Both the position numbers and the translations under genes were made by a program. From Candidatus Levyibacteriota bacterium (GTDB taxonomy: Bacteria > Patescibacteriota > Microgenomatia > Levybacterales > UBA12049): 64,000 bases of DNA. A model generated the notes under the pieces. The model had not been told where the DNA came from and searched no databases. It saw only the letters and a program-made list of their open reading frames with translations. Shown here one piece after another: positions 6,310-35,353 of this stretch (the first letter of the stretch is position 1; every line of letters starts with the position of its first letter). Location: assembly GCA_027459725.1 (NCBI GenBank), contig DAIDHK010000004.1:7050-71049 (forward strand), written 5' to 3'.

Positions 6310-6389
6310 GCAGTTAATCCATTTTAAACGAGGGGGGTGAGGATGACAAGATGATGAAAAATTGAATTAATAGTTAATATTAGAGTAGT

Positions 6390-9290
6390 CTATTTATTAA
6401 TCACCCTTTTCAAAAATCTTCCCGTTTCCGATCTTGAATTATCAGCAATTTCTTTTGGAGTTCCTTCAGCAACAATTTCCCCACCTTTTTCTCCTCCTTC
6501 AGGTCCAAGATCGACTATGTAATCAGCATTCTTTATTACATCAAGATTATGTTCAATCACTATAATAGAGTTTCCCTGATCTGTTAATTTTCGTAGTATA
6601 AACAGTAATTTTTCCAGATCAGCAAAATGTAAGCCTGTGGTTGGCTCATCGAGGAGATAAAGAGCATCTCGCCCTCGTTTTGATAGCTCTGCTGCCAGTT
6701 TTACTCTTTGGGCTTCTCCTCCTGATAAAGTGGTAGCAGGCTGACCTAATCCAATATACGATAAACCTACATCATTGAGTGTTTGTAGTTTATGGGCAAG
6801 ACTTGGTACAAAGTTAAAGAATTTCAAAGCTTCTTCTACACTCATATCCAAGACATCAGCAATGTTTTTGCCATTGAAAAGAATTTCTAATGCTTCATTA
6901 TTATACTGTTTACCTTGACAAACATCACAAGTTACATAAACATCAGGCAAAAACTGCATTTCAATTTTAATTTGTCCTTCACCTTCACAAGCTTCACAAC
7001 GACCACCCTTCACATTAAATGAAAATCGTCCCGGGCCGTAACCTCTAACTTTGGCTTCTTTAGTAGAAGCGAATAGTTCTCGAATGTATGTAAAGGCACC
7101 TGTGTATGTTACCGGATTACTGCGGGGAGTTCTCCCAATCGGTGATTGATCTATAGAAAACACATTTTTTATATATTCATCTCCCTTTAAAGAATCAAAT
7201 TCGCCAGGTTTATGCCGGTGGTAGGGGTTTTCTTTTTGCATCAGACCATGATATAAAATGTCATTAATCAAAGTTGACTTTCCGCTTCCTGAAACACCTG
7301 TTACTACAACCAGTTTATTTAAGGGAATTTTTACTGTAACATTTTTTAAATTGTGCTCACGGGCACCGGTAATAGTTAAAAAGTGCTCTTCTTTAGTCAG
7401 TAAACTGTCTTTTTTCTCCGGAGGGAGTATTTTAATCTTTTTCTTGCCTGATAAATATTGTCCTGTTATAGAGTTTTTATCAGTAATAATCTGATCAGGA
7501 GTTCCCTGAGCAATAATGTAGCCTCCTTGTTGTCCTGCTCCAGGTCCAAAGTCATATATATAATCAGAAGCCAGCATTGTGTCTTCATCATGCTCTACGA
7601 CTAAAACAGTATTGCCAAGATTTTTCAATTTTTTAAGAGTTTCAATTAACTTGCTATTATCTCTCTGATGCAAGCCAATTGATGGCTCATCTAGAACATA
7701 CAACACTCCGGTTAAACCACTTCCAATTTGAGAAGCTAATCGAATTCTTTGTGCCTCTCCTCCTGCCAGGGTTGAAGCACTTCGAGAAAGAGTTAAGTAG
7801 TCCAAACCAACATCATATAAGAAATTTAATCTCTCTCTAATTTCTCGCAAAATCAGTTTGGCAATTTCTCCTTCTCTTTTCGAGAAAAAATTTGGGAGCT
7901 CATTTATGAAACCTCTTGCACTGTCTATGTCCATGTTAGTAATATCCACAATTGACTTGCCTTCAATGGTAACTGACAAAGCTTCTTTTTTTAACCTCCC
8001 TCCATGACAGACTGGACAAGTGTCAAAGCGCATGAATTTTTCAATCTGACCTTTGACAAATTGAGAGTCAGACTCATTAAATCTTCTTTTTAACTCGTAA
8101 TTAATTCCACGGAAAGGTTCTGAAATAATTGTTTCATGACCCAGTCTATTCTCTCCCTCAACTAAATATTCACGGTCGCCGGTACCATTTAGTAACAAAT
8201 CTTTTTTTTCCGTGTCTAGATCTTTAATTATTTTATTTAAAGGAATGTTATTCTCCTGACAAAAAGTTTTAAAAGTTCTCGAAAACCAAGTATCGCTGGT
8301 ACCAAGATTAAAAAAAGGAGTTATTCCACCTTCACTTATAGTTAAATTGTTATTGAAGACCAAGTCTTTATCTACAATTAGTACTCTTCCTAACCCCGAA
8401 CAATTCGGACATGCTCCATGAGGCGTATTAAACGAGAAGATTCTGGGTTCAATTTCAGGCAAGGAAATGTTACAAACAGGACAAGAAAATTTTTCTGAAT
8501 ACAAATGATCTTCCATGTCTTTGGGATACTCAGGTAAGTCAAAAGTTTTATCATTAATAACTGTAACTTTCATTTCTCCATTACCATATTGAAGTGCCTG
8601 TTCGACATCAGTAGCCAATCGGTTACGGTCTGTCTCTTTTGCAATAATCAGTGCATCTATTATCAGATCAATTGAATGCTTATTGGTTTTTATCAAGACA
8701 ATGGTATCATCCAGCGAATAAACTTTATTATCGATACGAACTTTCCTGTAGCCTCGTTTCTTAAGACTAACAAATAAATCTGAATATTCACCTCTTCTAT
8801 CCTTTACAATAGGAGCGAGAAGTAAGACACGCACGAGCTTATTGCCATATATTTGATTTTCGTGCATCTTAAAAATGCTGTCAGTAATTTGCTCTTTTGA
8901 CTGCTGGGCAATTTCCCTTCCACAATTTGGACAATGAGGATGTCCAACGCGGGCAAATAGCAAACGCATATAATCATATATTTCTGTAACCGTTCCTACT
9001 GTCGAACGAGGATTATGACTGGCTGATTTTTGGTCAATAGAAATAGCGGGAGATAAACCTTCAATCAAATCAACGTCTGGTTTTTTCATTGTTCCTAAAA
9101 ACTGTCTGGCGTATGACGATAAACTTTCTACATACCTTCTTTGTCCTTCTGCGTAAACGGTATCAAATGCTAAGGAAGATTTTCCACTACCGGAGAGTCC
9201 AGTCAATACAACCAGTTTATTTTTAGGAATTTCCAAATCAATATTCTTGAGATTGTGCTCTCTAGCACCTTTAATTGTAATCTTGTCCAT
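6390..9290 (-). CDS. uvrA: Excinuclease ABC subunit A (UvrA)
   Basis: 966 aa with two ABC ATPase modules ([12 protein letters not shown] / [11 protein letters not shown] Walker A, LSGGE signatures) and zinc-finger CxxC pairs. Confidence 0.95.
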
Positions 9291-18427: not shown

Positions 18428-19300
18428 CTACTTTGTTTTCCTGTGTAAAAGGCTTATCTCTACATAAGTATCAAACTTTCTTAATGAACAGTTAATAATT
18501 TTATATTGTTTCAGTCTTTTAGCAAAATAAAGGTAAATTATGTAACACGTTACAAGCACGTGGGTCATATTTTCTGGATTACGGTCAAGTATTAGTGTTT
18601 CCCCCTGTGGTGTTTTAAGCCAGAAGTGGTTAATCCCTCGCATTTGTAGGTGCGCATATTCAGAGAACATTTTATACACAAGTAAATATGTACTCTCTAA
18701 ATCTCCGCTACCATCTTTCTTGCTTTTCGCTTGCCTTTTATCTGTTGTCTTTGCCCTTTGTAGAAGGTTTGTCCAAACTCTATCAAAGTCCTTTTTGCTG
18801 GCAAATGAAAGTCCTAAATCTTTCTCATATTTAACAAATTCTTGCTCGTTATCTTTCAACATCTCTGTCAACTTTGCGTCCGTAAGTGTTTTTCCTTGCT
18901 TTCTAGGGTAACGCTTGTAGAAATCCTGCATTTGTTCTACCAGAGATTTTTTATAGTATGTGTCCTCAATTGCGAATAGCCATAGCTTGTTGTTATTTGG
19001 ATAGCTTAGGACATAGTTAGAATTTATGTATGCTTCAATTAAACTGCGCAATATAACCATAGCTGACTCTGGTCTACCTTGTTTGCATAACTCAAAAATA
19101 GCTTCTGTGTATGAATTTATCGCAGCAAAGATTGCAACAACTAGGGTTTGCTTTGGCTTTAGCTTATCTTTATAGATAGGGTTTGCTGTCAAATACTGTT
19201 TCGTGTAATTAACTAATTCCGCCAAGTGTTCCAGTATTTCTTGGTCTTCTTGTTTTATCTGAAAAATTCTGTCCATTGTGCTTACTGTATTATATTGCAA
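18428..19300 (-). CDS. Hypothetical protein (island cargo)
   Basis: 290 aa clean ORF. No recognised motif. Confidence 0.5.
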   Translation of the reverse strand: MQYNTVSTMDRIFQIKQEDQEILEHLAELVNYTKQYLTANPIYKDKLKPKQTLVVAIFAAINSYTEAIFELCKQGRPESAMVILRSLIEAYINSNYVLSYPNNNKLWLFAIEDTYYKKSLVEQMQDFYKRYPRKQGKTLTDAKLTEMLKDNEQEFVKYEKDLGLSFASKKDFDRVWTNLLQRAKTTDKRQAKSKKDGSGDLESTYLLVYKMFSEYAHLQMRGINHFWLKTPQGETLILDRNPENMTHVLVTCYIIYLYFAKRLKQYKIINCSLRKFDTYVEISLLHRKTK

Positions 19301-26256: not shown

Positions 26257-27210
26257 ATGCCAATTTATAAAAATAGTAATGGCAAACTTACGCCTATTAA
26301 AGAACAGAGGGTATCCCTTGAGAGAGATTTGCAAAAGTTAACAGAGGCTAATTTGGAAAATATTTTTGGGTTAACTTTTATAAGTGGAGCCTCAAATCAA
26401 GAATTTAGTGTTCGAGTAAATGAGCAGGATTTTTACCTTGATACTCTTGCATTTGATGCCTCTAAAAATTCCTTTGTCATAATTGAATACAAGAAGGATA
26501 AAAGTTTTAGTGTCATTGACCAAGGTTTTGCCTATCTTGCTGCAATGCTTAATAATCAAGCTGCATTTATTTTGGAATTGAATGAGAGATTAAAGAAAAC
26601 TTATACCAGGAAAGATATTAACTGGGAAGAATCGAGAGTTATCTTTATTTCTCCTGAATTTACAAACTATCAAAAGAACGCTATCAACTTTAAGGATTTA
26701 CCAATGTATCTTTATGAGGCTCGATTTTACGATAATGAATTAGTTGAGTATGACCCTATTAAACCTTATAAGACCAGTGAATCTATACGTAAAATCTCAA
26801 AGGATAAAGTAATTCAAACCGTCACAAAACAAGTAAAAGTCTACACCTTAGATGACCTTTTTGCGCCTTCATGGACAGATTCCCGCGAACTCTTTAATCA
26901 GCTTCAAGAATTGATAATAAAACTAGGCGCAGATGTTTCCGAAAATATAACGAAACAATATATTGCCTTTAAGGCAAAGAAGAATGGACAAGGCTATAAT
27001 TTTGTTGAAGTTGTACCACAAGCCAACGGTCTAAAAATACACTTAGATATGTCTAAAAATGAACTAAAAGACGACAGGAATATTACAGAAGACGTCTCAA
27101 AAAAAGGACATTGGGCTACGGGAAATACTAAATTTAGCTTAAACGATAGTGAAAATCTCGAATATGCCATTAAGCTAATTGAACAAAGTTATAACAAAGT
27201 TACAAGATAA
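26257..27210 (+). CDS. PD-(D/E)xK nuclease-fold protein (NucS/DUF91-like N-terminus, extended C-terminal domain)
   Basis: N-terminal ERDLQKLTEANLENIFGL...DTLAFDASKNSFVIIEYKKD matches the restriction-endonuclease-like fold. Lies 14 bp downstream of res on the same strand. Confidence 0.4.
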   Translation: MPIYKNSNGKLTPIKEQRVSLERDLQKLTEANLENIFGLTFISGASNQEFSVRVNEQDFYLDTLAFDASKNSFVIIEYKKDKSFSVIDQGFAYLAAMLNNQAAFILELNERLKKTYTRKDINWEESRVIFISPEFTNYQKNAINFKDLPMYLYEARFYDNELVEYDPIKPYKTSESIRKISKDKVIQTVTKQVKVYTLDDLFAPSWTDSRELFNQLQELIIKLGADVSENITKQYIAFKAKKNGQGYNFVEVVPQANGLKIHLDMSKNELKDDRNITEDVSKKGHWATGNTKFSLNDSENLEYAIKLIEQSYNKVTR

Positions 27211-27258: not shown

Positions 27259-28002
27259 TTACCTTTGCTTCTTAAAATTATCCAGTGATTTTAATCCTCT
27301 TTGCACACCAGTCAATTGTCCAGGAATTTGATTAGCTTTAACATAATTATCAAATGCTACTAAGATTTGGTTTACAAAATTAACAAGCTTGTCTAGGCAA
27401 CCATCAATCTCTCCACTTAAGACCCATGCTAAATGCACATTCTTCCATTCGTCTTCACTTGGGGAATACAGACGTTCTTTTGAGGGATGTTCAACTAAAT
27501 CCCTATTTGTAAGAATTTTCTGAAGGCAGTCTGGTACGGGAAGTTTGAGGCTTAAATTTTTAAGAAGAATTGATAATCGTTCATAGATTGTAAAATTCTC
27601 CCAAGGCACTTCAACCTTACCACCCTTATGAATGTGAATATTATTTATCATTGTTAACATTTCTGTAGTCATGTATTCAAAAGCAAGTTTGGTAAAAATA
27701 AGAAATTGCATTGAAGCAAATTCTAGGTCGTCTCTTAATTGGTCATCTAATAAACGGGTATTATCATTTCCTACCGGTAATGCCCTTGCTTTATTTAGTA
27801 AATCTAAGACATCGTTATAAAAGTTTGCACTTTTAGAGAGGAGCATTGAATGCCTGTGATATTGAACAAAATAATATTTTCCCCAAACATTGTCCTTTGA
27901 AGGCTGAACTAGAGCTATATTTGCTCCTTTTGCGTGAGGCTTTGCTAGCGCAGGGTCAGAGATATTTCGTAATTTACTACCCTTAATGGTTTGCTTTTTC
28001 AT
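27259..28002 (-). CDS. Hypothetical protein, second gene of the unknown two-gene operon
   Basis: 247 aa. No recognisable motif. 9 bp downstream of the 405-aa gene. Confidence 0.5.
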   Translation of the reverse strand: MKKQTIKGSKLRNISDPALAKPHAKGANIALVQPSKDNVWGKYYFVQYHRHSMLLSKSANFYNDVLDLLNKARALPVGNDNTRLLDDQLRDDLEFASMQFLIFTKLAFEYMTTEMLTMINNIHIHKGGKVEVPWENFTIYERLSILLKNLSLKLPVPDCLQKILTNRDLVEHPSKERLYSPSEDEWKNVHLAWVLSGEIDGCLDKLVNFVNQILVAFDNYVKANQIPGQLTGVQRGLKSLDNFKKQR

Positions 28003-28011
28003 GTTTATACC

Positions 28012-29229
28012 TTATGACTTTTGGAGCCAATTGTAAATAGCAGTGCGGGTTATATAGAATAAATCTTCTTGAAGTTTTCTCTGGTCATCTTTTTTTGCAT
28101 CCATTCCAAAATGCCAAGGTTCTAAGTCTGATTGTAACAAATCCATACCATGTGCAAGCTGTGACCTGATTTTGTAAATTGTTTTCTTGGCTAATGGGTA
28201 TTGGTCAATATTTGGAACATTTTCTTTTAAGAATTCCTGGAAGTGTTTTGTAATGTGATAGCGGGGTTGTCCACAACACTTACAAATATCTTCATTCTGT
28301 AAAAGCGGTTGATTGCAACATTTACAAACTTCTTTATCTTGAGTAAGGCATTCAAGTGCAGTAACCAGTTCTATAAATGCAGATGATTGAGACTCTTGCC
28401 AAGTATACGAGTGTTGGGCATACCAACTACATGCCATGAAAAACTTTCTCCATTTCGTATTATCCAGCGAGAAAGCCTTATCTAAAGATGCTTCTAAATT
28501 ATCAGGTAGTTTAAATGCGTCAAGCGACCTACCTTGAGATGAATAATATTTTTTATATTCCTCTCTTTCTATTGGCTTAAAGTCATCTAAGGATGAGAAT
28601 TTACCAGCGTTATCTGGTAAGCTTTTAGGGAAATATCCTAACTGAACCCATTTCGTTGTCGCATTGTTTAGGTCATCTGTATTTATATAAGCCCATGCTG
28701 ATTGGTTATATCGATTACCAAGCCAAATATGCTGGTTTACTAACTGATTTAATAATCGAGAGTAAATGGTAGCTCTTTCTGTTAGTCGATTGTTGTTAAA
28801 TAAGAAATTTGAACTCTTTTTAATCTTAATTTCCAAAACAAAAGGGTGGTCTGCAATTGCTAAATCTGCTTTTGGTGCGCTATCAGGAACTGGGAGTATC
28901 TGAAATAAATCATTATACTTAAAATAGCCTGTTACTCTTTCGGTACAAAATCCAATTACTTGTCTAACAACTTCTCCATGGTCAGTAATAAGATTGTCTT
29001 GAATTTTCTTTTCGAGTTGGAAGAGTTCATCTTCTGGAAAATCCTTTGAGAGATTATACTCTTTTATACTACCGTCGTCGTTACAAACTAAATCAACATA
29101 AACATTTGAGTTTTGTTTCCCATACCTATAAGTAAATTCCCCTGTATTCTGCGCTAGATTGAAATACATTAACAATATTTGCATTAACTCTTGAGGTTTC
29201 ACTTCATTGATGTGCAAATAATCTTTCAT
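28012..29229 (-). CDS. Hypothetical protein with Zn-ribbon (CxCC-x12-CxCC) and C-terminal HEPN-like Rx4H motif
   Basis: 405 aa. CKCCNQPLLQNEDICKCCGQP is followed by YKIRSQLAHGMDLL (R-x4-H) in a helical C-terminal region. The N-terminal half is unknown. Confidence 0.5.
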   Translation of the reverse strand: MKDYLHINEVKPQELMQILLMYFNLAQNTGEFTYRYGKQNSNVYVDLVCNDDGSIKEYNLSKDFPEDELFQLEKKIQDNLITDHGEVVRQVIGFCTERVTGYFKYNDLFQILPVPDSAPKADLAIADHPFVLEIKIKKSSNFLFNNNRLTERATIYSRLLNQLVNQHIWLGNRYNQSAWAYINTDDLNNATTKWVQLGYFPKSLPDNAGKFSSLDDFKPIEREEYKKYYSSQGRSLDAFKLPDNLEASLDKAFSLDNTKWRKFFMACSWYAQHSYTWQESQSSAFIELVTALECLTQDKEVCKCCNQPLLQNEDICKCCGQPRYHITKHFQEFLKENVPNIDQYPLAKKTIYKIRSQLAHGMDLLQSDLEPWHFGMDAKKDDQRKLQEDLFYITRTAIYNWLQKS

Positions 29230-29349
29230 AATTTATAAGGTAATTATACCAAAGCTCAATATTATAAAAACGTTCCTTTATATTTCCCACTATCATAAAA
29301 AGAAAAGGCTTGCATTGGCTATAGGATTTCATATAATAAAATTATTAAC

Positions 29350-29985
29350 ATGACGTTTTCATTAAATCCAAGCTCTAATCCTACTACCAAAGCCTTTGCT
29401 TACCTTCGCGTTTCTACTGCTCTACAAGACCTAGAAAAGAATAAATCAGCTATTTTAGAGCTTGCCAACACAAAACACTTAGGCCATGTTGAATTCATAT
29501 CCGAGCAAGTCTCTGGCAAAATCACTTGGAGAAAGCGTAAGATTGCAGAACTTTTGGATAGTATGCAAAAAGGAGATAGCCTTATTGTCTCAGAGCTATC
29601 AAGGCTTGGCAGAAGTATGCTTGAGTGTATGGAAATACTCTCTGTAGCAATGCAGAAACAAATAAATGTCTTTTCAATAAAGGGCAATTGGGAGCTTAAC
29701 AATTCCATTCAAAGCAAACTTGTGGCAATGTGCTTCTCAATGGCAAGCGAAATTGAGCGTGATTTAATCAGCCAACGCACTAAGGAAGCACTCAGGGTAA
29801 AAAAACTTGCTGGAATCAAGTTAGGACGTCCAAAAGGCATTGGTAAAAGCAAACTTGACCAATATTCCATTGAAATTACCGCCCTTCTTAAAAACGGTTC
29901 AACCAAAGAGTTCATAGCAAAACGCTACAATACAACTCCTGCAAATCTTCATCACTGGCTCAAAAAGCGAGGGACACAGTATTAA
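29350..29985 (+). CDS. Small serine recombinase (resolvase/DNA invertase family)
   Basis: AYLRVSTALQD has the catalytic Ser. SELSRLGRS resolvase core. C-terminal HTH. Confidence 0.85.
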   Translation: MTFSLNPSSNPTTKAFAYLRVSTALQDLEKNKSAILELANTKHLGHVEFISEQVSGKITWRKRKIAELLDSMQKGDSLIVSELSRLGRSMLECMEILSVAMQKQINVFSIKGNWELNNSIQSKLVAMCFSMASEIERDLISQRTKEALRVKKLAGIKLGRPKGIGKSKLDQYSIEITALLKNGSTKEFIAKRYNTTPANLHHWLKKRGTQY

Positions 29986-29986
29986 G

Positions 29987-30169
29987 TTACTTTTTTCCTA
30001 GTTCTTCCTCAACCCACTTGAGTTTTTCTTCTAGCATTTTCTTTTTTGCTTCTAAGTGTTCTTTGGACATTTTATGCTCCATACAGCAGTCCATCATCAT
30101 GCCGTGACCTCCGTGAGCAGAACAACATCCGCAATAGCCACAATTTCCACAACATTTTCCTTTATCCAT
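29987..30169 (-). CDS. Cys/His-rich small protein (metallothionein-like)
   Basis: 60 aa: MDKGKCCGNCGYCGCCSAHGGHGMMMDCCMEH then a charged helix. Its start codon overlaps the stop of the upstream DUF488 gene (ATGA). Confidence 0.4.
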   Translation of the reverse strand: MDKGKCCGNCGYCGCCSAHGGHGMMMDCCMEHKMSKEHLEAKKKMLEEKLKWVEEELGKK

Positions 30170-30549
30170 TATGTATTCACCTCCTTTGCAATTTTAATAT
30201 CTCTTTTGTTTTCTAGTATGTCAAACAAGACTTTTGCTTCGTTATGTTTGGTATCACGAGCGCCATACAACAGCGATAGTAACTTGTGGCAGCTCTCAAG
30301 GCTTACGAGTTGATTTAACAATTCTTTTTTACTTTTTAGTTCTTCTTTGTACTTCTTTTCAAACTCCTGCCATTTGTTTGGGTCATGCGCGAACCATTCA
30401 CGCAGTTCATTGCTTGGAGCTATATCTTTAAGCCATAAATCAAGGTGAGCTTTTTCCTTTGAAATACCCCGAGGCCAGAGCCTATCTACAAGCACACGAT
30501 AACCATCTTTTTTATCATATGGCTCATAAATCCGCTTGAGTTGTATCAT
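30169..30549 (-). CDS. DUF488 (YeaO-like) protein
   Basis: RIYEP...DGYRVLVDRLWPRGISKE...DLWLKDIAPSNELREWF matches the DUF488 signature. Confidence 0.75.
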   Translation of the reverse strand: MIQLKRIYEPYDKKDGYRVLVDRLWPRGISKEKAHLDLWLKDIAPSNELREWFAHDPNKWQEFEKKYKEELKSKKELLNQLVSLESCHKLLSLLYGARDTKHNEAKVLFDILENKRDIKIAKEVNT

Positions 30550-31949: not shown

Positions 31950-32223
31950 CTTTCCTCAAAATTCCTCAAAATACGAACTTTTTAAAGCTAAATCCTTTTT
32001 ATTTTCATTTTTTTTCCTCAAGAAAATAGAGCAAACTACATTTAGTATATGAAAGATGTAGAAAATCAAACCGACTTTAACACAGAACAGTATATTCAAA
32101 AACTAAAAGAACTTCCACCTCTTGACGAGAAGATTGAGTCTCGACTTCGTGCAATAGCTAACGCCATTCTTGATAGGCTCGAAGAAAGCAACAATAATTT
32201 ATCTACAGAGGAGGCTAATGCAA

Positions 32224-33972
32224 ATGTCTAATTTAACACAAGAAATAGATATAGGAATGGTAAGAGTTAGTTCATTTAAGCAGGGACTTGCTGGAGACTC
32301 GCCCGACGAGCAAAAGGAAGCAATCCAAGCTAAAAGAACAAAGGAAGGAAGAATTGATATTCCAATTGAATGGGTTGAAATAATTGAATCCGCATCGGGA
32401 GTAAAACAACCATATCAAAGAGTTTTGGCAATATGCAAACAATCACAAATAAAGATAAGTAGGGTGTATGCAAAAGTAATTGACCGGATGACAAGAGGAG
32501 GTGCAAAACCATACATCTTCTTTAAGGAACAACTTGAAAAGAATAATGTTCAACTAGTCGATGTTGCAGGTGTTATAAGTTCGCACACAGTCAATACTCT
32601 TGAACACATTACCAATAAGAAGTATGCTTGGAGTGTGTATAATCCTTCATATAAAGAAGAACTACTTGAAGCAGAAGCAGGTAAAGATGAGGTCAGGAAA
32701 ATTCTCACACGTATGATTGGTGCTGAGATTCGCTACATAAAATATGGCTATTGGGTAGGTCCATCGCCTCTCGGTTATAAAAACAAGAAAATTGATACCG
32801 CAGAACACGGAGAACGTACAATTCTTGAGCCAGATATAGAAAAAGAAGCAGTTTGGTTTGAGACAATGTTTTCCCTTGTTGCTCAAGGAACTCCTTATTT
32901 AGAAGTTGTAAAACAAGTCAATGCAATGGGCTTTAAGACAAGACCAAGAAAAATTTATGATGAGCTAATTAAAACAAAAGTAATTGGCGTACATTCTGGT
33001 GAAATTTTGACAGTTAAAAGTCTCAAGGAATACATCAAGCGACCAATTTACGCGGGAGTAAATAATCACTCTTGGCTTGAAGGAAAACCTGTTAAAGGAC
33101 GTTTTAAGAGCATTATTTCTATTGATTTATTTAATAGGGCAAATAAAGGTAAAATTACTATCGTCGAGGATGGAGAAAATGTGCGTATTTATAATGGCAA
33201 GGTGCCTTCATATTTGCAAAAAAAAGACAAATTCAATTCATATTTTCCATACAAAGACCAAGTCTTATGTCCTAAATGCAAAAAACCATTCTATGCAAGC
33301 ACTTCTAAGGGCAGAAATGGACATTATCCAGCATATCATCACGGGAGCAGAACTGGCACACATCCCTATCTTAAAGTGAGTAGGGACACATTCCATGAAA
33401 CAATTAGGAAATTCGTGCAGGAGGTAAAATTTACTGATGATTTTCTCATGTATCTTCACAAATTTATCCTTGAAGAATGGGAAACAAGAAGAAAAACCTC
33501 ATTAGACAAAAATATCACACTTGGACAGCGCCTCACTAGCATTGAACAAGAACAGAAAATGTATGCAGAAAAAATACCTTTACTCTCATCAGCTGTAGCA
33601 ATAAAGGTTATGGAAAGTAAAATAGAGGAGTTAGAGCAGGCAAAGGTTGAGGTAATGGCAGAAAAAGCAAAAAGGCAAAAAGAAGGAATGGATATTCAAA
33701 AAATTATTCACGACTCTTGGTACTTTTTCGAACACTTGGAGGATTTACTTCTCGAAGGCACAAATACACGTACAAATTCTACTCTCTTTGGTCTACTCTT
33801 TGACGAGAAGCCAACTTATGAGGATTTACTTTTTCGAACCGCTAAGTTGTCTTGTGTCTTCAAGCTAAGTGAAGCACACAAAAACACTCTGGGACAGAAA
33901 AGTATGAACAGTGACCCGACTCGGATTCGAACCGAGGACCAAGAGCTTAAAAGGCTCCTGCTCTACCGCTGA
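32224..33972 (+). CDS. Large serine recombinase (integrase) whose 3' end overlaps tRNA-Lys
   Basis: N-terminal resolvase-like domain (MVRVSS). Recombinase domain (GYWVGPSPLGYKNKK). Zn-ribbon/coiled-coil C-terminus. ORF track starts at 32170; Met at 32224 is the likelier start. The last 20 codons lie inside the tRNA-Lys gene. Confidence 0.8.
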   Translation: MSNLTQEIDIGMVRVSSFKQGLAGDSPDEQKEAIQAKRTKEGRIDIPIEWVEIIESASGVKQPYQRVLAICKQSQIKISRVYAKVIDRMTRGGAKPYIFFKEQLEKNNVQLVDVAGVISSHTVNTLEHITNKKYAWSVYNPSYKEELLEAEAGKDEVRKILTRMIGAEIRYIKYGYWVGPSPLGYKNKKIDTAEHGERTILEPDIEKEAVWFETMFSLVAQGTPYLEVVKQVNAMGFKTRPRKIYDELIKTKVIGVHSGEILTVKSLKEYIKRPIYAGVNNHSWLEGKPVKGRFKSIISIDLFNRANKGKITIVEDGENVRIYNGKVPSYLQKKDKFNSYFPYKDQVLCPKCKKPFYASTSKGRNGHYPAYHHGSRTGTHPYLKVSRDTFHETIRKFVQEVKFTDDFLMYLHKFILEEWETRRKTSLDKNITLGQRLTSIEQEQKMYAEKIPLLSSAVAIKVMESKIEELEQAKVEVMAEKAKRQKEGMDIQKIIHDSWYFFEHLEDLLLEGTNTRTNSTLFGLLFDEKPTYEDLLFRTAKLSCVFKLSEAHKNTLGQKSMNSDPTRIRTEDQELKRLLLYR

Positions 33973-33983
33973 GCTATCGGGCC
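33912..33983 (-). tRNA. tRNA-Lys (anticodon UUU)
   Basis: Cloverleaf folds by hand: acceptor GGCCCGA/TCGGGTC, anticodon loop CTTTTAA, T-arm CTCGG-TTCGAAT-CCGAG, discriminator A. No encoded CCA. Confidence 0.85.
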
Positions 33984-34868: not shown

Positions 34869-34945
34869 GCCGCGTTCGTCTAGTGGCCTAGGACGCTGGG
34901 CTTTCATCCCGGAAATCACGGGTTCGACTCCCGTACGCGGTACCA
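34869..34945 (+). tRNA. tRNA-Glu (anticodon UUC)
   Basis: Acceptor GCCGCGT/ACGCGGT, anticodon stem CTGGG/CCCGG with loop CTTTCAT, T-arm ACGGG-TTCGACT-CCCGT, encoded CCA. A TATAAT box lies about 25 bp upstream. Confidence 0.85.
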
Positions 34946-35353
34946 TATAGAACTTTTTACTAAATTCTCTAGATTAGCTTGTTCTGACGGGTTGTTCTTG
35001 GGTTCGAGCCGGGTAGTTTCAGCTTTTGTCTGTTTTACACCCTTTTTATAGTGTAAAAACGGTAATCGTGGCTGAAAATTCAAAATCTGATCTAGTAAGA
35101 TCAGGTTCGAGCCAACTCCTTTAACTATTGATTTTCTCTCAACTGTGTTTCCATTTTGAAATCTTTGGCTTGCTGTTAGAGCAAAATCAAAGCTTTCCCT
35201 AGCTATCTTTTCCCACTCGCTATCATCATTCATGTTTTGAAGCTGTTCGGTTAGTTTATCTTTTTCGGTAATCAGCCTTTGTTTTCTCTCTAAAAATTCA
35301 GCATCTGAAAGCATACTACCGTCAGAGTTTGCTGCTGATATTCGAAGTTCCAC
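34916..35353 (-). pseudogene. Probable C-terminal remnant of a large serine recombinase abutting tRNA-Glu
   Basis: Coiled-coil-rich 145-aa ORF whose end runs into the tRNA-Glu 3' end, mirroring the recombinase/tRNA-Lys arrangement. No catalytic domain. Confidence 0.3.

Follow-up and report, generated by a model that had tools for sequence, protein, structure and literature searches.

Two adjacent genes of previously undescribed families

The window analyzed here is a 64,000-nucleotide stretch of a Candidatus Levyibacteriota genome (contig DAIDHK010000004.1), in which two minus-strand genes, termed A and B, lie beside a Type III restriction-modification (R-M) locus. An earlier reading of the sequence alone (hereafter the sequence-only reading) had singled them out as a candidate defense system of no recognized family. 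The open reading frame (ORF) listing confirmed both genes (Table 1) and the 9 bp between them (28003-28011), and it contains no ORF of at least 60 residues on the opposite strand. Searches of Pfam, PADLOC, NCBIfam, PHROGs, and the PDB sequences returned nothing significant for either protein, and no system or candidate model of PADLOC v2.0 matched A or B at E values up to 1. Among 5.8 billion protein clusters, a word-indexed search returned 44 relatives of A, most of them full length and 30-76% identical, together with four relatives of B. For the latter family, a four-sequence profile run exhaustively with HMMER against 1.84 billion representatives retrieved 111 cluster representatives, many of them fragments, with full-length members mostly 230-255 residues long. 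With 44 relatives and 111 cluster representatives, respectively, A and B are real genes under selection, and, as judged by these searches, each founds or joins a sequence family absent from all curated libraries.

The distribution of both families is patchy and crosses phyla. Named sources among the 44 relatives of A are Patescibacteria and a Ktedonobacteraceae metagenome-assembled genome (MAG), and more distant members (22-29% identity) were recovered by scans of genome and metagenome contigs; they belong to Nitrospirota, Asticcacaulis benevestitus, Chryseobacterium/Epilithonimonas, and other Bacteroidota, with one on a viral contig of IMG/VR. Two cultured strains, A. benevestitus DSM 16100 and Epilithonimonas hispanica KCTC 22104, are among the carriers. 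In two of the loci collected (numbered L001 onward), the A-family gene is split into two ORFs, namely, on a Nitrospirota contig (L004, 6288-7490) and on the only viral IMG/VR contig (L013, 5465-6512); these copies are likely frameshifted or decaying.

Table 1. Features of genes A and B and of their surroundings (window positions unless a locus is named)
Feature	Position	Strand	Description
Gene A	28012-29229	-	405 residues, ATG start; N-terminal alpha/beta region and C-terminal HEPN domain
A, residues 1-240	28510-29229	-	Alpha/beta region, from model secondary structure and conservation
A, residues 245-405	28015-28497	-	HEPN domain; helical domain in the model
A, E293 (ALECL)	28351-28353	-	Acidic residue closing HEPN helix 2; invariant
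A, Cys4 zinc ribbon (C302, C305, C316, C319)	28273-28326	-	Residues 302-319, between HEPN helices 2 and 3
A, Rx4H motif (R355-S-Q-L-A-H360)	28150-28167	-	IRSQLAHG, residues 354-361; C-terminal end of helix 345-359
Gene B	27259-28002	-	247 residues, ATG start; compact HEPN protein, extended at both termini by conserved segments
B, Rx4H motif (R167-D-L-V-E-H172, then P173)	27487-27504	-	R167 and H172 in 63/63 members; P173 in 62/63
Extended -10-like element TGGTATAAT	29243-29251	-	About 14 nt upstream of the A start codon
PADLOC candidate PDC-S18	26257-27210	+	DUF5655 with PDDEXK-like N-terminus (E 4e-99); between Type III Res and B
Small serine resolvase/invertase	29350-29985	+	211 residues, divergent from A (Pfam Resolvase, E 4e-28)
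Linked resolvase of L001	7249-7881		Divergent from A
Linked resolvase of L038	3133-3771		Divergent from A

Protein A couples an alpha/beta region to a HEPN domain with a zinc ribbon

An AlphaFold model of A, built on the family alignment (predicted local distance difference test score, 87.5; predicted template modeling score, 0.85), shows a four-helix up-and-down fold of the HEPN type in the C-terminal domain. Published descriptions of the HEPN domain place a conserved acidic residue in helix 2, an insert between helices 2 and 3, and an Rx4H motif where the next core helix ends (PMC3710099). The geometry of A matches this description, with E293 as the conserved acidic residue of helix 2, the zinc ribbon as the variable insert between helices 2 and 3, and the conserved Rx4-6H motif closing core helix 3. 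In an alignment of 38 A sequences (A1), the invariant residues include E293, C316, C319, R355, S356, H360, and G361, and the hidden Markov model (HMM) alignment of all loci retains E293 and R355-S356-x3-H360 in every member covering the region, down to ~24% identity. The sequence-only reading had likened the IRSQLAHG stretch of A to the catalytic motif of HEPN RNases. This assignment gains support from the fold, from E293, and from the invariance of R355 and H360, which extends to all distant full-length members. The HEPN models of Pfam matched none of the 38 aligned sequences.

A tandem cysteine motif had also been noted ahead of the helical C-terminus, and it is indeed present, with a spacer of 10 residues rather than the 12 first given (C302-K-C304-C305, 10 residues, C316-K-C318-C319). 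The core conserved in the family is CxxC-x10/11-CxxC. Its second pair (C316/C319) is invariant in A1 and retained in most distant members, the first (C302/C305) occurs in a subset of members only, and the full Cys4 zinc ribbon is limited to a subclade; the clade of homologues found in L015 and L027 lacks both pairs. Zinc-ribbon models of Pfam gave weak, sub-threshold matches in at most 9 of the 38 members. We suggest that the HEPN insert has turned into a Cys4 zinc ribbon in the clade to which A belongs.

The first 240 residues of A are modeled as two units of one helix and four strands each, followed by a helix and two strands, and they carry the conserved motifs GYFRYKDLFQILPVP and DHPF; members from Bacteroidota lack the first ~90 residues. 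This region has no match among Pfam models or PDB sequences and presumably acts as a regulatory or sensing module. An internal duplication of its N-terminal units was considered and discarded, as hhalign finds no repeat. The resemblance of the first 54 residues to the SiaB kinase (E 0.077) and to 6kko (E 0.025) fell far short of the cut-offs and was treated as noise, and both family alignments, used as profiles against the PDB sequences, returned zinc-finger noise only. The architecture of A, in which the HEPN domain contains a zinc ribbon and is preceded by an N-terminal alpha/beta module, is new.

Protein B is a second HEPN-fold protein

The product of B, which the sequence-only reading had regarded as unassignable, turned out to have a HEPN fold with a conserved Rx4-6H motif that had been overlooked, so that the HEPN assignment extends to both genes. 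Six residues (G26, G41, R167, H172, W186, and W193) are invariant in 63 aligned members, 56 of which have E, Q, or D at position 109 in helix 2. A Pfam scan of B members gave no convincing family match. The window also contains a DUF5677 gene ~8 kb from the two genes (18428-19300, minus strand); a comparison of its product with B by hhalign was not significant, and a relationship between the two was not retained.

Predicted function of A and B

Few effectors are as common in bacterial immunity and toxin-antitoxin systems as HEPN RNases. A and B are probably two separate genes, representing two families of the HEPN superfamily, whose products are predicted to be dimeric RNases acting in abortive infection or as toxins. 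HEPN enzymes dimerize, and their paired Rx4-6H motifs build a composite, metal-independent RNase site (PMC8266594; PMC13017515). A and B would each homodimerize in the same manner, with the Rx4H pairs (R355/H360 with E293 in A; R167/H172 in B) forming a composite metal-independent endoribonuclease site. Characterized HEPN RNases are restrained until a trigger arrives, either by an antitoxin or by an alternative resting dimer or oligomeric state (RnlA, PMC8266594; RAZR, PMC13017515), and a zinc-binding module can set the specificity for that trigger (RAZR, PMC13017515). Each of the two proteins would likewise be kept inactive until a trigger such as phage infection, upon which it would cut cellular or phage RNA and halt growth, through abortive infection or toxin action. 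The N-terminal region and the zinc ribbon would be the candidate regulatory or sensing parts of A.

Several observations weigh against this proposal. A free HEPN toxin usually needs a neutralizing partner or autoinhibition, and neither was identified for A or B. Searches of sequenced plasmid and phage collections by tblastn with both proteins gave no match. The 9-bp spacing and the shared strand give the two genes the appearance of a functional operon. Finally, some relatives lie amid housekeeping genes, namely, groES/groEL (L002), ribD (L003), and msrA (L066), and linkage to defense is therefore not universal.

Such surroundings would suit a role for one or both proteins as housekeeping RNA-processing or nucleotide-binding HEPN proteins with no part in conflict, and non-toxic HEPN proteins such as Las1 and sacsin do exist. 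We nevertheless hold this alternative to be very unlikely, given that both families are very rare and patchy for the size of the databases searched, that the relatives are not syntenic and include the frameshifted copies of L004 and L013, that the catalytic motif is strictly retained, and that many neighbors are mobile or defense genes. Two conflict-related RNases remain the preferred explanation.

A and B are seldom found together

The sequence-only reading had treated A and B as the two halves of one system, a claim that gained no support. Co-occurrence was analyzed with ORFs from 61 loci, 59 of which are A loci (~46 distinct after removal of near-duplicate contigs); contexts of B were taken from exact-protein look-ups only, because the divergent B alignment offers no conserved stretch for locus scans. 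The B-family HMM found a B neighbor in a single distinct A locus, L001, and the A-family HMM found no A in any of 12 B loci (9 distinct). L001 belongs to a Candidatus Levyibacteriota MAG with the same Type III R-M genes and resolvase, in which A is 76% and B 85% identical to the window proteins. Because it is a close orthologous region, the pairing in L001 is conservation by recent descent and not independent retention. When the two genes flanking A on each side were compared all against all by BLAST, no partner recurred beyond duplicate contigs. Across the B loci, B is preceded by a shikimate-kinase-like P-loop gene, a Fic gene, msrA, a DUF6941 gene that follows a LexA-like gene and a peptidase gene, or a 156-residue ORF that follows a DUF5677 gene. 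A conserved two-gene system is thus not supported, and A and B look like two independent genes sharing a locus in this lineage. Tight gene spacing within a defense island does not make a system.

These counts bear on an alternative in which A and B form a two-component module, either a composite HEPN-HEPN nuclease resembling Cas13 or a toxin-regulator pair in the RnlA-RnlB order, with B controlling A. Such a module would be consistent with the single strand and 9-bp gap, with no internal promoter or terminator detectable, with the retention of the pair in L001, and with the nature of HEPN domains as dimerization units (PMC8266594). An hhalign comparison of the two families points the same way, as it sets E293 of A against E109 of B and brings both Rx4H motifs into register, at a probability of only 0.2; this value is not significant, and a relationship between A and B was rejected.

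HEPN-type genes also recur beside relatives of A or B. A 114-155-residue ORF containing the Rx4H-like stretch IRCNLFHG lies downstream of the A homologues in L015 (1521-1865) and L027 (5592-6059) and has no significant match in Pfam (MauJ at E 0.004 only). In L062, B is followed by a gene weakly resembling HEPN_Cthe2314 (E 5e-5, below the Pfam cut-off). A DUF5677 gene adjoins the A homologue in one locus (L039, 2772-3560) and is found two genes upstream of the B homologue in L064/L065 (L064, 3699-4532). Nucleotidyltransferase genes neighbor A in two loci only, L005 and L006, that of L006 being a nucleotidyltransferase-HEPN fusion. Against a module, however, stand the co-occurrence of A and B in 1 of ~46 distinct A loci and 0 of 9 distinct B loci, the single case being one of descent, the retention by B of its own invariant catalytic residues, unlike an antitoxin, and the lack of any conserved downstream gene in most A relatives. 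We consider a two-component module unlikely.

The HEPN-type or DUF5677 genes that adjoin or lie near relatives in L006, L015/L027, L039, L062, and L064 would also fit a broader scheme, in which the N-terminal region of A is a new infection sensor gating the zinc-ribbon-bearing HEPN RNase, B supplies a second HEPN chain in this lineage, and interchangeable HEPN-HEPN pairs are a wider, unrecognized habit. This scheme strikes us as rather improbable. The adjacency of A and B most likely reflects independent conflict genes piled up in a variable island, in line with the preferred reading of two separate RNases.

Genomic context and linkage to a serine resolvase

The defense neighborhood described by the sequence-only reading was borne out. 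One flank holds a helix-turn-helix controller, the Type III Mod (N6_N4 methylase) and Res (ResIII helicase-type) genes, and the PDDEXK/DUF5655 gene that PADLOC labels PDC-S18. The R-M locus is convergent relative to A and B, which would allow a reading of these as a PrrC-like "second line" behind restriction. The other flank begins with the small serine resolvase, followed by a DUF488 gene, a winged-helix protein, a large serine recombinase, and tRNA-Lys.

Pfam and PADLOC annotation of 128 proteins neighboring A in its various loci identified, among mobile and defense functions, three resolvases, a Tn3 transposase, a phage integrase, N6 and Eco57I-type methylases, TIR/ThsB, QatA, a KAP NTPase, and, in L001, a cyclase of the type found in cyclic-oligonucleotide-based anti-phage signaling systems (CBASS), along with the PADLOC candidates PDC-S09 and PDC-S20 and four matches to "mad2". 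Housekeeping neighbors, such as groES/groEL, ribD, pfk, and msrB-type genes, are present as well. Taken as a whole, these contexts are those of a sparse accessory gene that moves horizontally and lies frequently, though not invariably, in conflict islands.

A resolvase gene stands divergently next to A in three loci: the window, L001 (82% identical), and L038 (69% identical). The A protein of L038 is only 45% identical to that of the window even though the resolvase is linked, and the outer flanks are unrelated across the three loci. The window and L001 are homologous at the DNA level over exactly the resolvase-A-B block (2.7 kb, 77%) and, separately, over the R-M genes; this block beside a Type III R-M locus is specific to the Levyibacteriota-like lineage. 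The position between B and the R-M genes, occupied by PDC-S18 in the window and by an unrelated 241-residue ORF in L001 (9981-10706), is a variable slot inside the island. Beyond its resolvase, L001 encodes the CBASS-type oligonucleotide cyclase (6331-7248, minus strand; SMODS, Pfam E 3e-27; PADLOC Cyclase E 4e-102), and nothing similar is found beyond the resolvase of the window.

Small serine recombinases have been reported as markers of defense loci (preprint 10.1101/2025.10.07.681051). The resolvase is a linked mobile-element marker that lies outside the predicted RNase machinery. Alternatively, the block of resolvase and A (with or without B) could be a cargo or addiction module of a small mobile element, with HEPN toxins that mainly stabilize or accompany the element rather than defend the host. 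The abrupt ends of the 2.7-kb homology unit, at the resolvase on one side and at the B stop codon on the other, with differing outer flanks, would agree with this idea, as would the recurrence of the resolvase-A linkage in L038 at 45% A identity and the Tn3 transposase of one A locus. The linkage is nevertheless confined to three loci, and no terminal repeats bound the block. A 17-nt inverted repeat (27249-27265/29237-29253) does bracket A and B exactly, which raised the idea of an invertible cassette, but 25 of 300 shuffles produced a match of at least 14 of 17 positions and L001 lacks the repeat, so that it was rejected as chance. Addiction and defense are, moreover, not mutually exclusive. 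An element of which A and B are primarily cargo seems doubtful to us, and we keep to the view that they are accessory RNase genes of a conflict island.

The extended -10-like element upstream of A has a counterpart, TGCTATAAT, in the corresponding position ahead of the L001 orthologue, where the surrounding intergenic DNA has diverged. This TGnTATAAT element is a plausible candidate promoter, to be taken as a lead only because the generic promoter scan, like that for terminators, was not above chance. An RNA component such as a type III antitoxin was also considered and set aside, as Rfam models detected two tRNAs only at 17-36 kb of the window and no meaningful tandem repeat was found.

Further features were observed in the surroundings. 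Directly downstream of the DUF488 gene (30169-30549, minus strand) is a 60-residue ORF (29987-30169, minus strand) very rich in Cys, His, and Met (MDKGKCCGNCGYCGCCSAHGGHGMMMDCCMEH...), which may encode a small metal-binding protein. The large serine recombinase ORF (600 residues; 32170-33972, plus strand) runs into tRNA-Lys (33911-33983, minus strand). A tRNA-Glu (34869-34945, plus strand) is overlapped by a 145-residue ORF (34916-35353, minus strand) whose product is 29% identical to part of a 583-residue ORF in L001. The arrangement is suggestive of an integration hotspot that retains remnants of recombinases; no direct repeat of att type derived from a tRNA was found. The left part of the island contains a 59-nt direct repeat (17296-17354/18149-18207; 78% identity) with copies 853 bp apart.

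Significance and comparison with known systems

No curated profile library detects families A and B, which are found mostly in uncultivated lineages, the Candidate Phyla Radiation (Patescibacteria) with its poorly charted defense repertoire among them. Family A adds a new architecture, and its trigger would be worth finding.

Several known HEPN systems are distinct from A and B. The single-gene defense proteins ApeA, AbiV, and Tha, as well as AbiU2, PrrC/RloC, and EC042_2821, which are HEPN proteins embedded in R-M loci, differ in domain architecture and show no Pfam or PADLOC match to either protein. HepT-type toxins of HEPN/MNT pairs (5yep, 7ae2, 8xdj; DUF86-like) have no sequence-level match to A or B, no MNT nucleotidyltransferase flanks A or B in the window, and B is ~110 residues longer than HepT, with conserved N- and C-terminal extensions. 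For the zinc-ribbon insert, the only precedent found is the animal Cxorf38-type HEPN of the Swt1 clade, described as a "Zn ribbon inserted into HEPN" (PMC3710099). Cxorf38-type proteins are, in contrast to A, eukaryotic and joined to other partner domains, with no detectable sequence relationship to A, which most likely acquired its insert independently.

A likeness in layout exists with RnlA and LsoA, the RNase LS toxins of the rnlAB and lsoAB anti-phage toxin-antitoxin loci. Like A, these proteins combine N-terminal alpha/beta modules with a C-terminal HEPN RNase at a similar total size (in RnlA, TBP1 at 1-92, TBP2 at 93-193, and HEPN at 194-357; PMC8266594), and their loci, like that of A and B, place the large HEPN gene first with a second gene close behind. 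The helix and four-strand units of the A model resemble the TBP-like domains of RnlA, and the four best Foldseek matches of the model in the PDB are E. coli RnlA chains, all below threshold (E 0.11-0.27; template modeling score ~0.14). Membership of A in the RnlA/LsoA family was rejected, as no Pfam match was found and hhalign of the A profile against E. coli RnlA gave a probability of 0.08; because of these values, the resemblance counts as a lead in layout and not as membership. No cognate antitoxin of the RnlB/LsoB type lies downstream of A, the gene in that place being B, a HEPN protein present in no A locus beyond the window and L001.

RAZR (PD-T7-4), a ring-activated zinc-finger HEPN RNase, resembles A in joining a zinc-binding module and a divergent HEPN RNase in one protein. 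It differs from A in its size of ~25 kDa, its N-terminal zinc-finger domain, and its DUF4145 HEPN (R146...H154), whereas A carries its zinc ribbon inside the HEPN domain and has an unrelated N-terminal region of 240 residues. Because A matches neither DUF4145 nor the PADLOC PD-T7-4 model at E values up to 1 and has its zinc module in a different position, it is not a RAZR homologue. RAZR is a single-gene defense protein that responds to phage proteins and works through abortive infection (PMC13017515), and by analogy it could serve as a model for how A might work.

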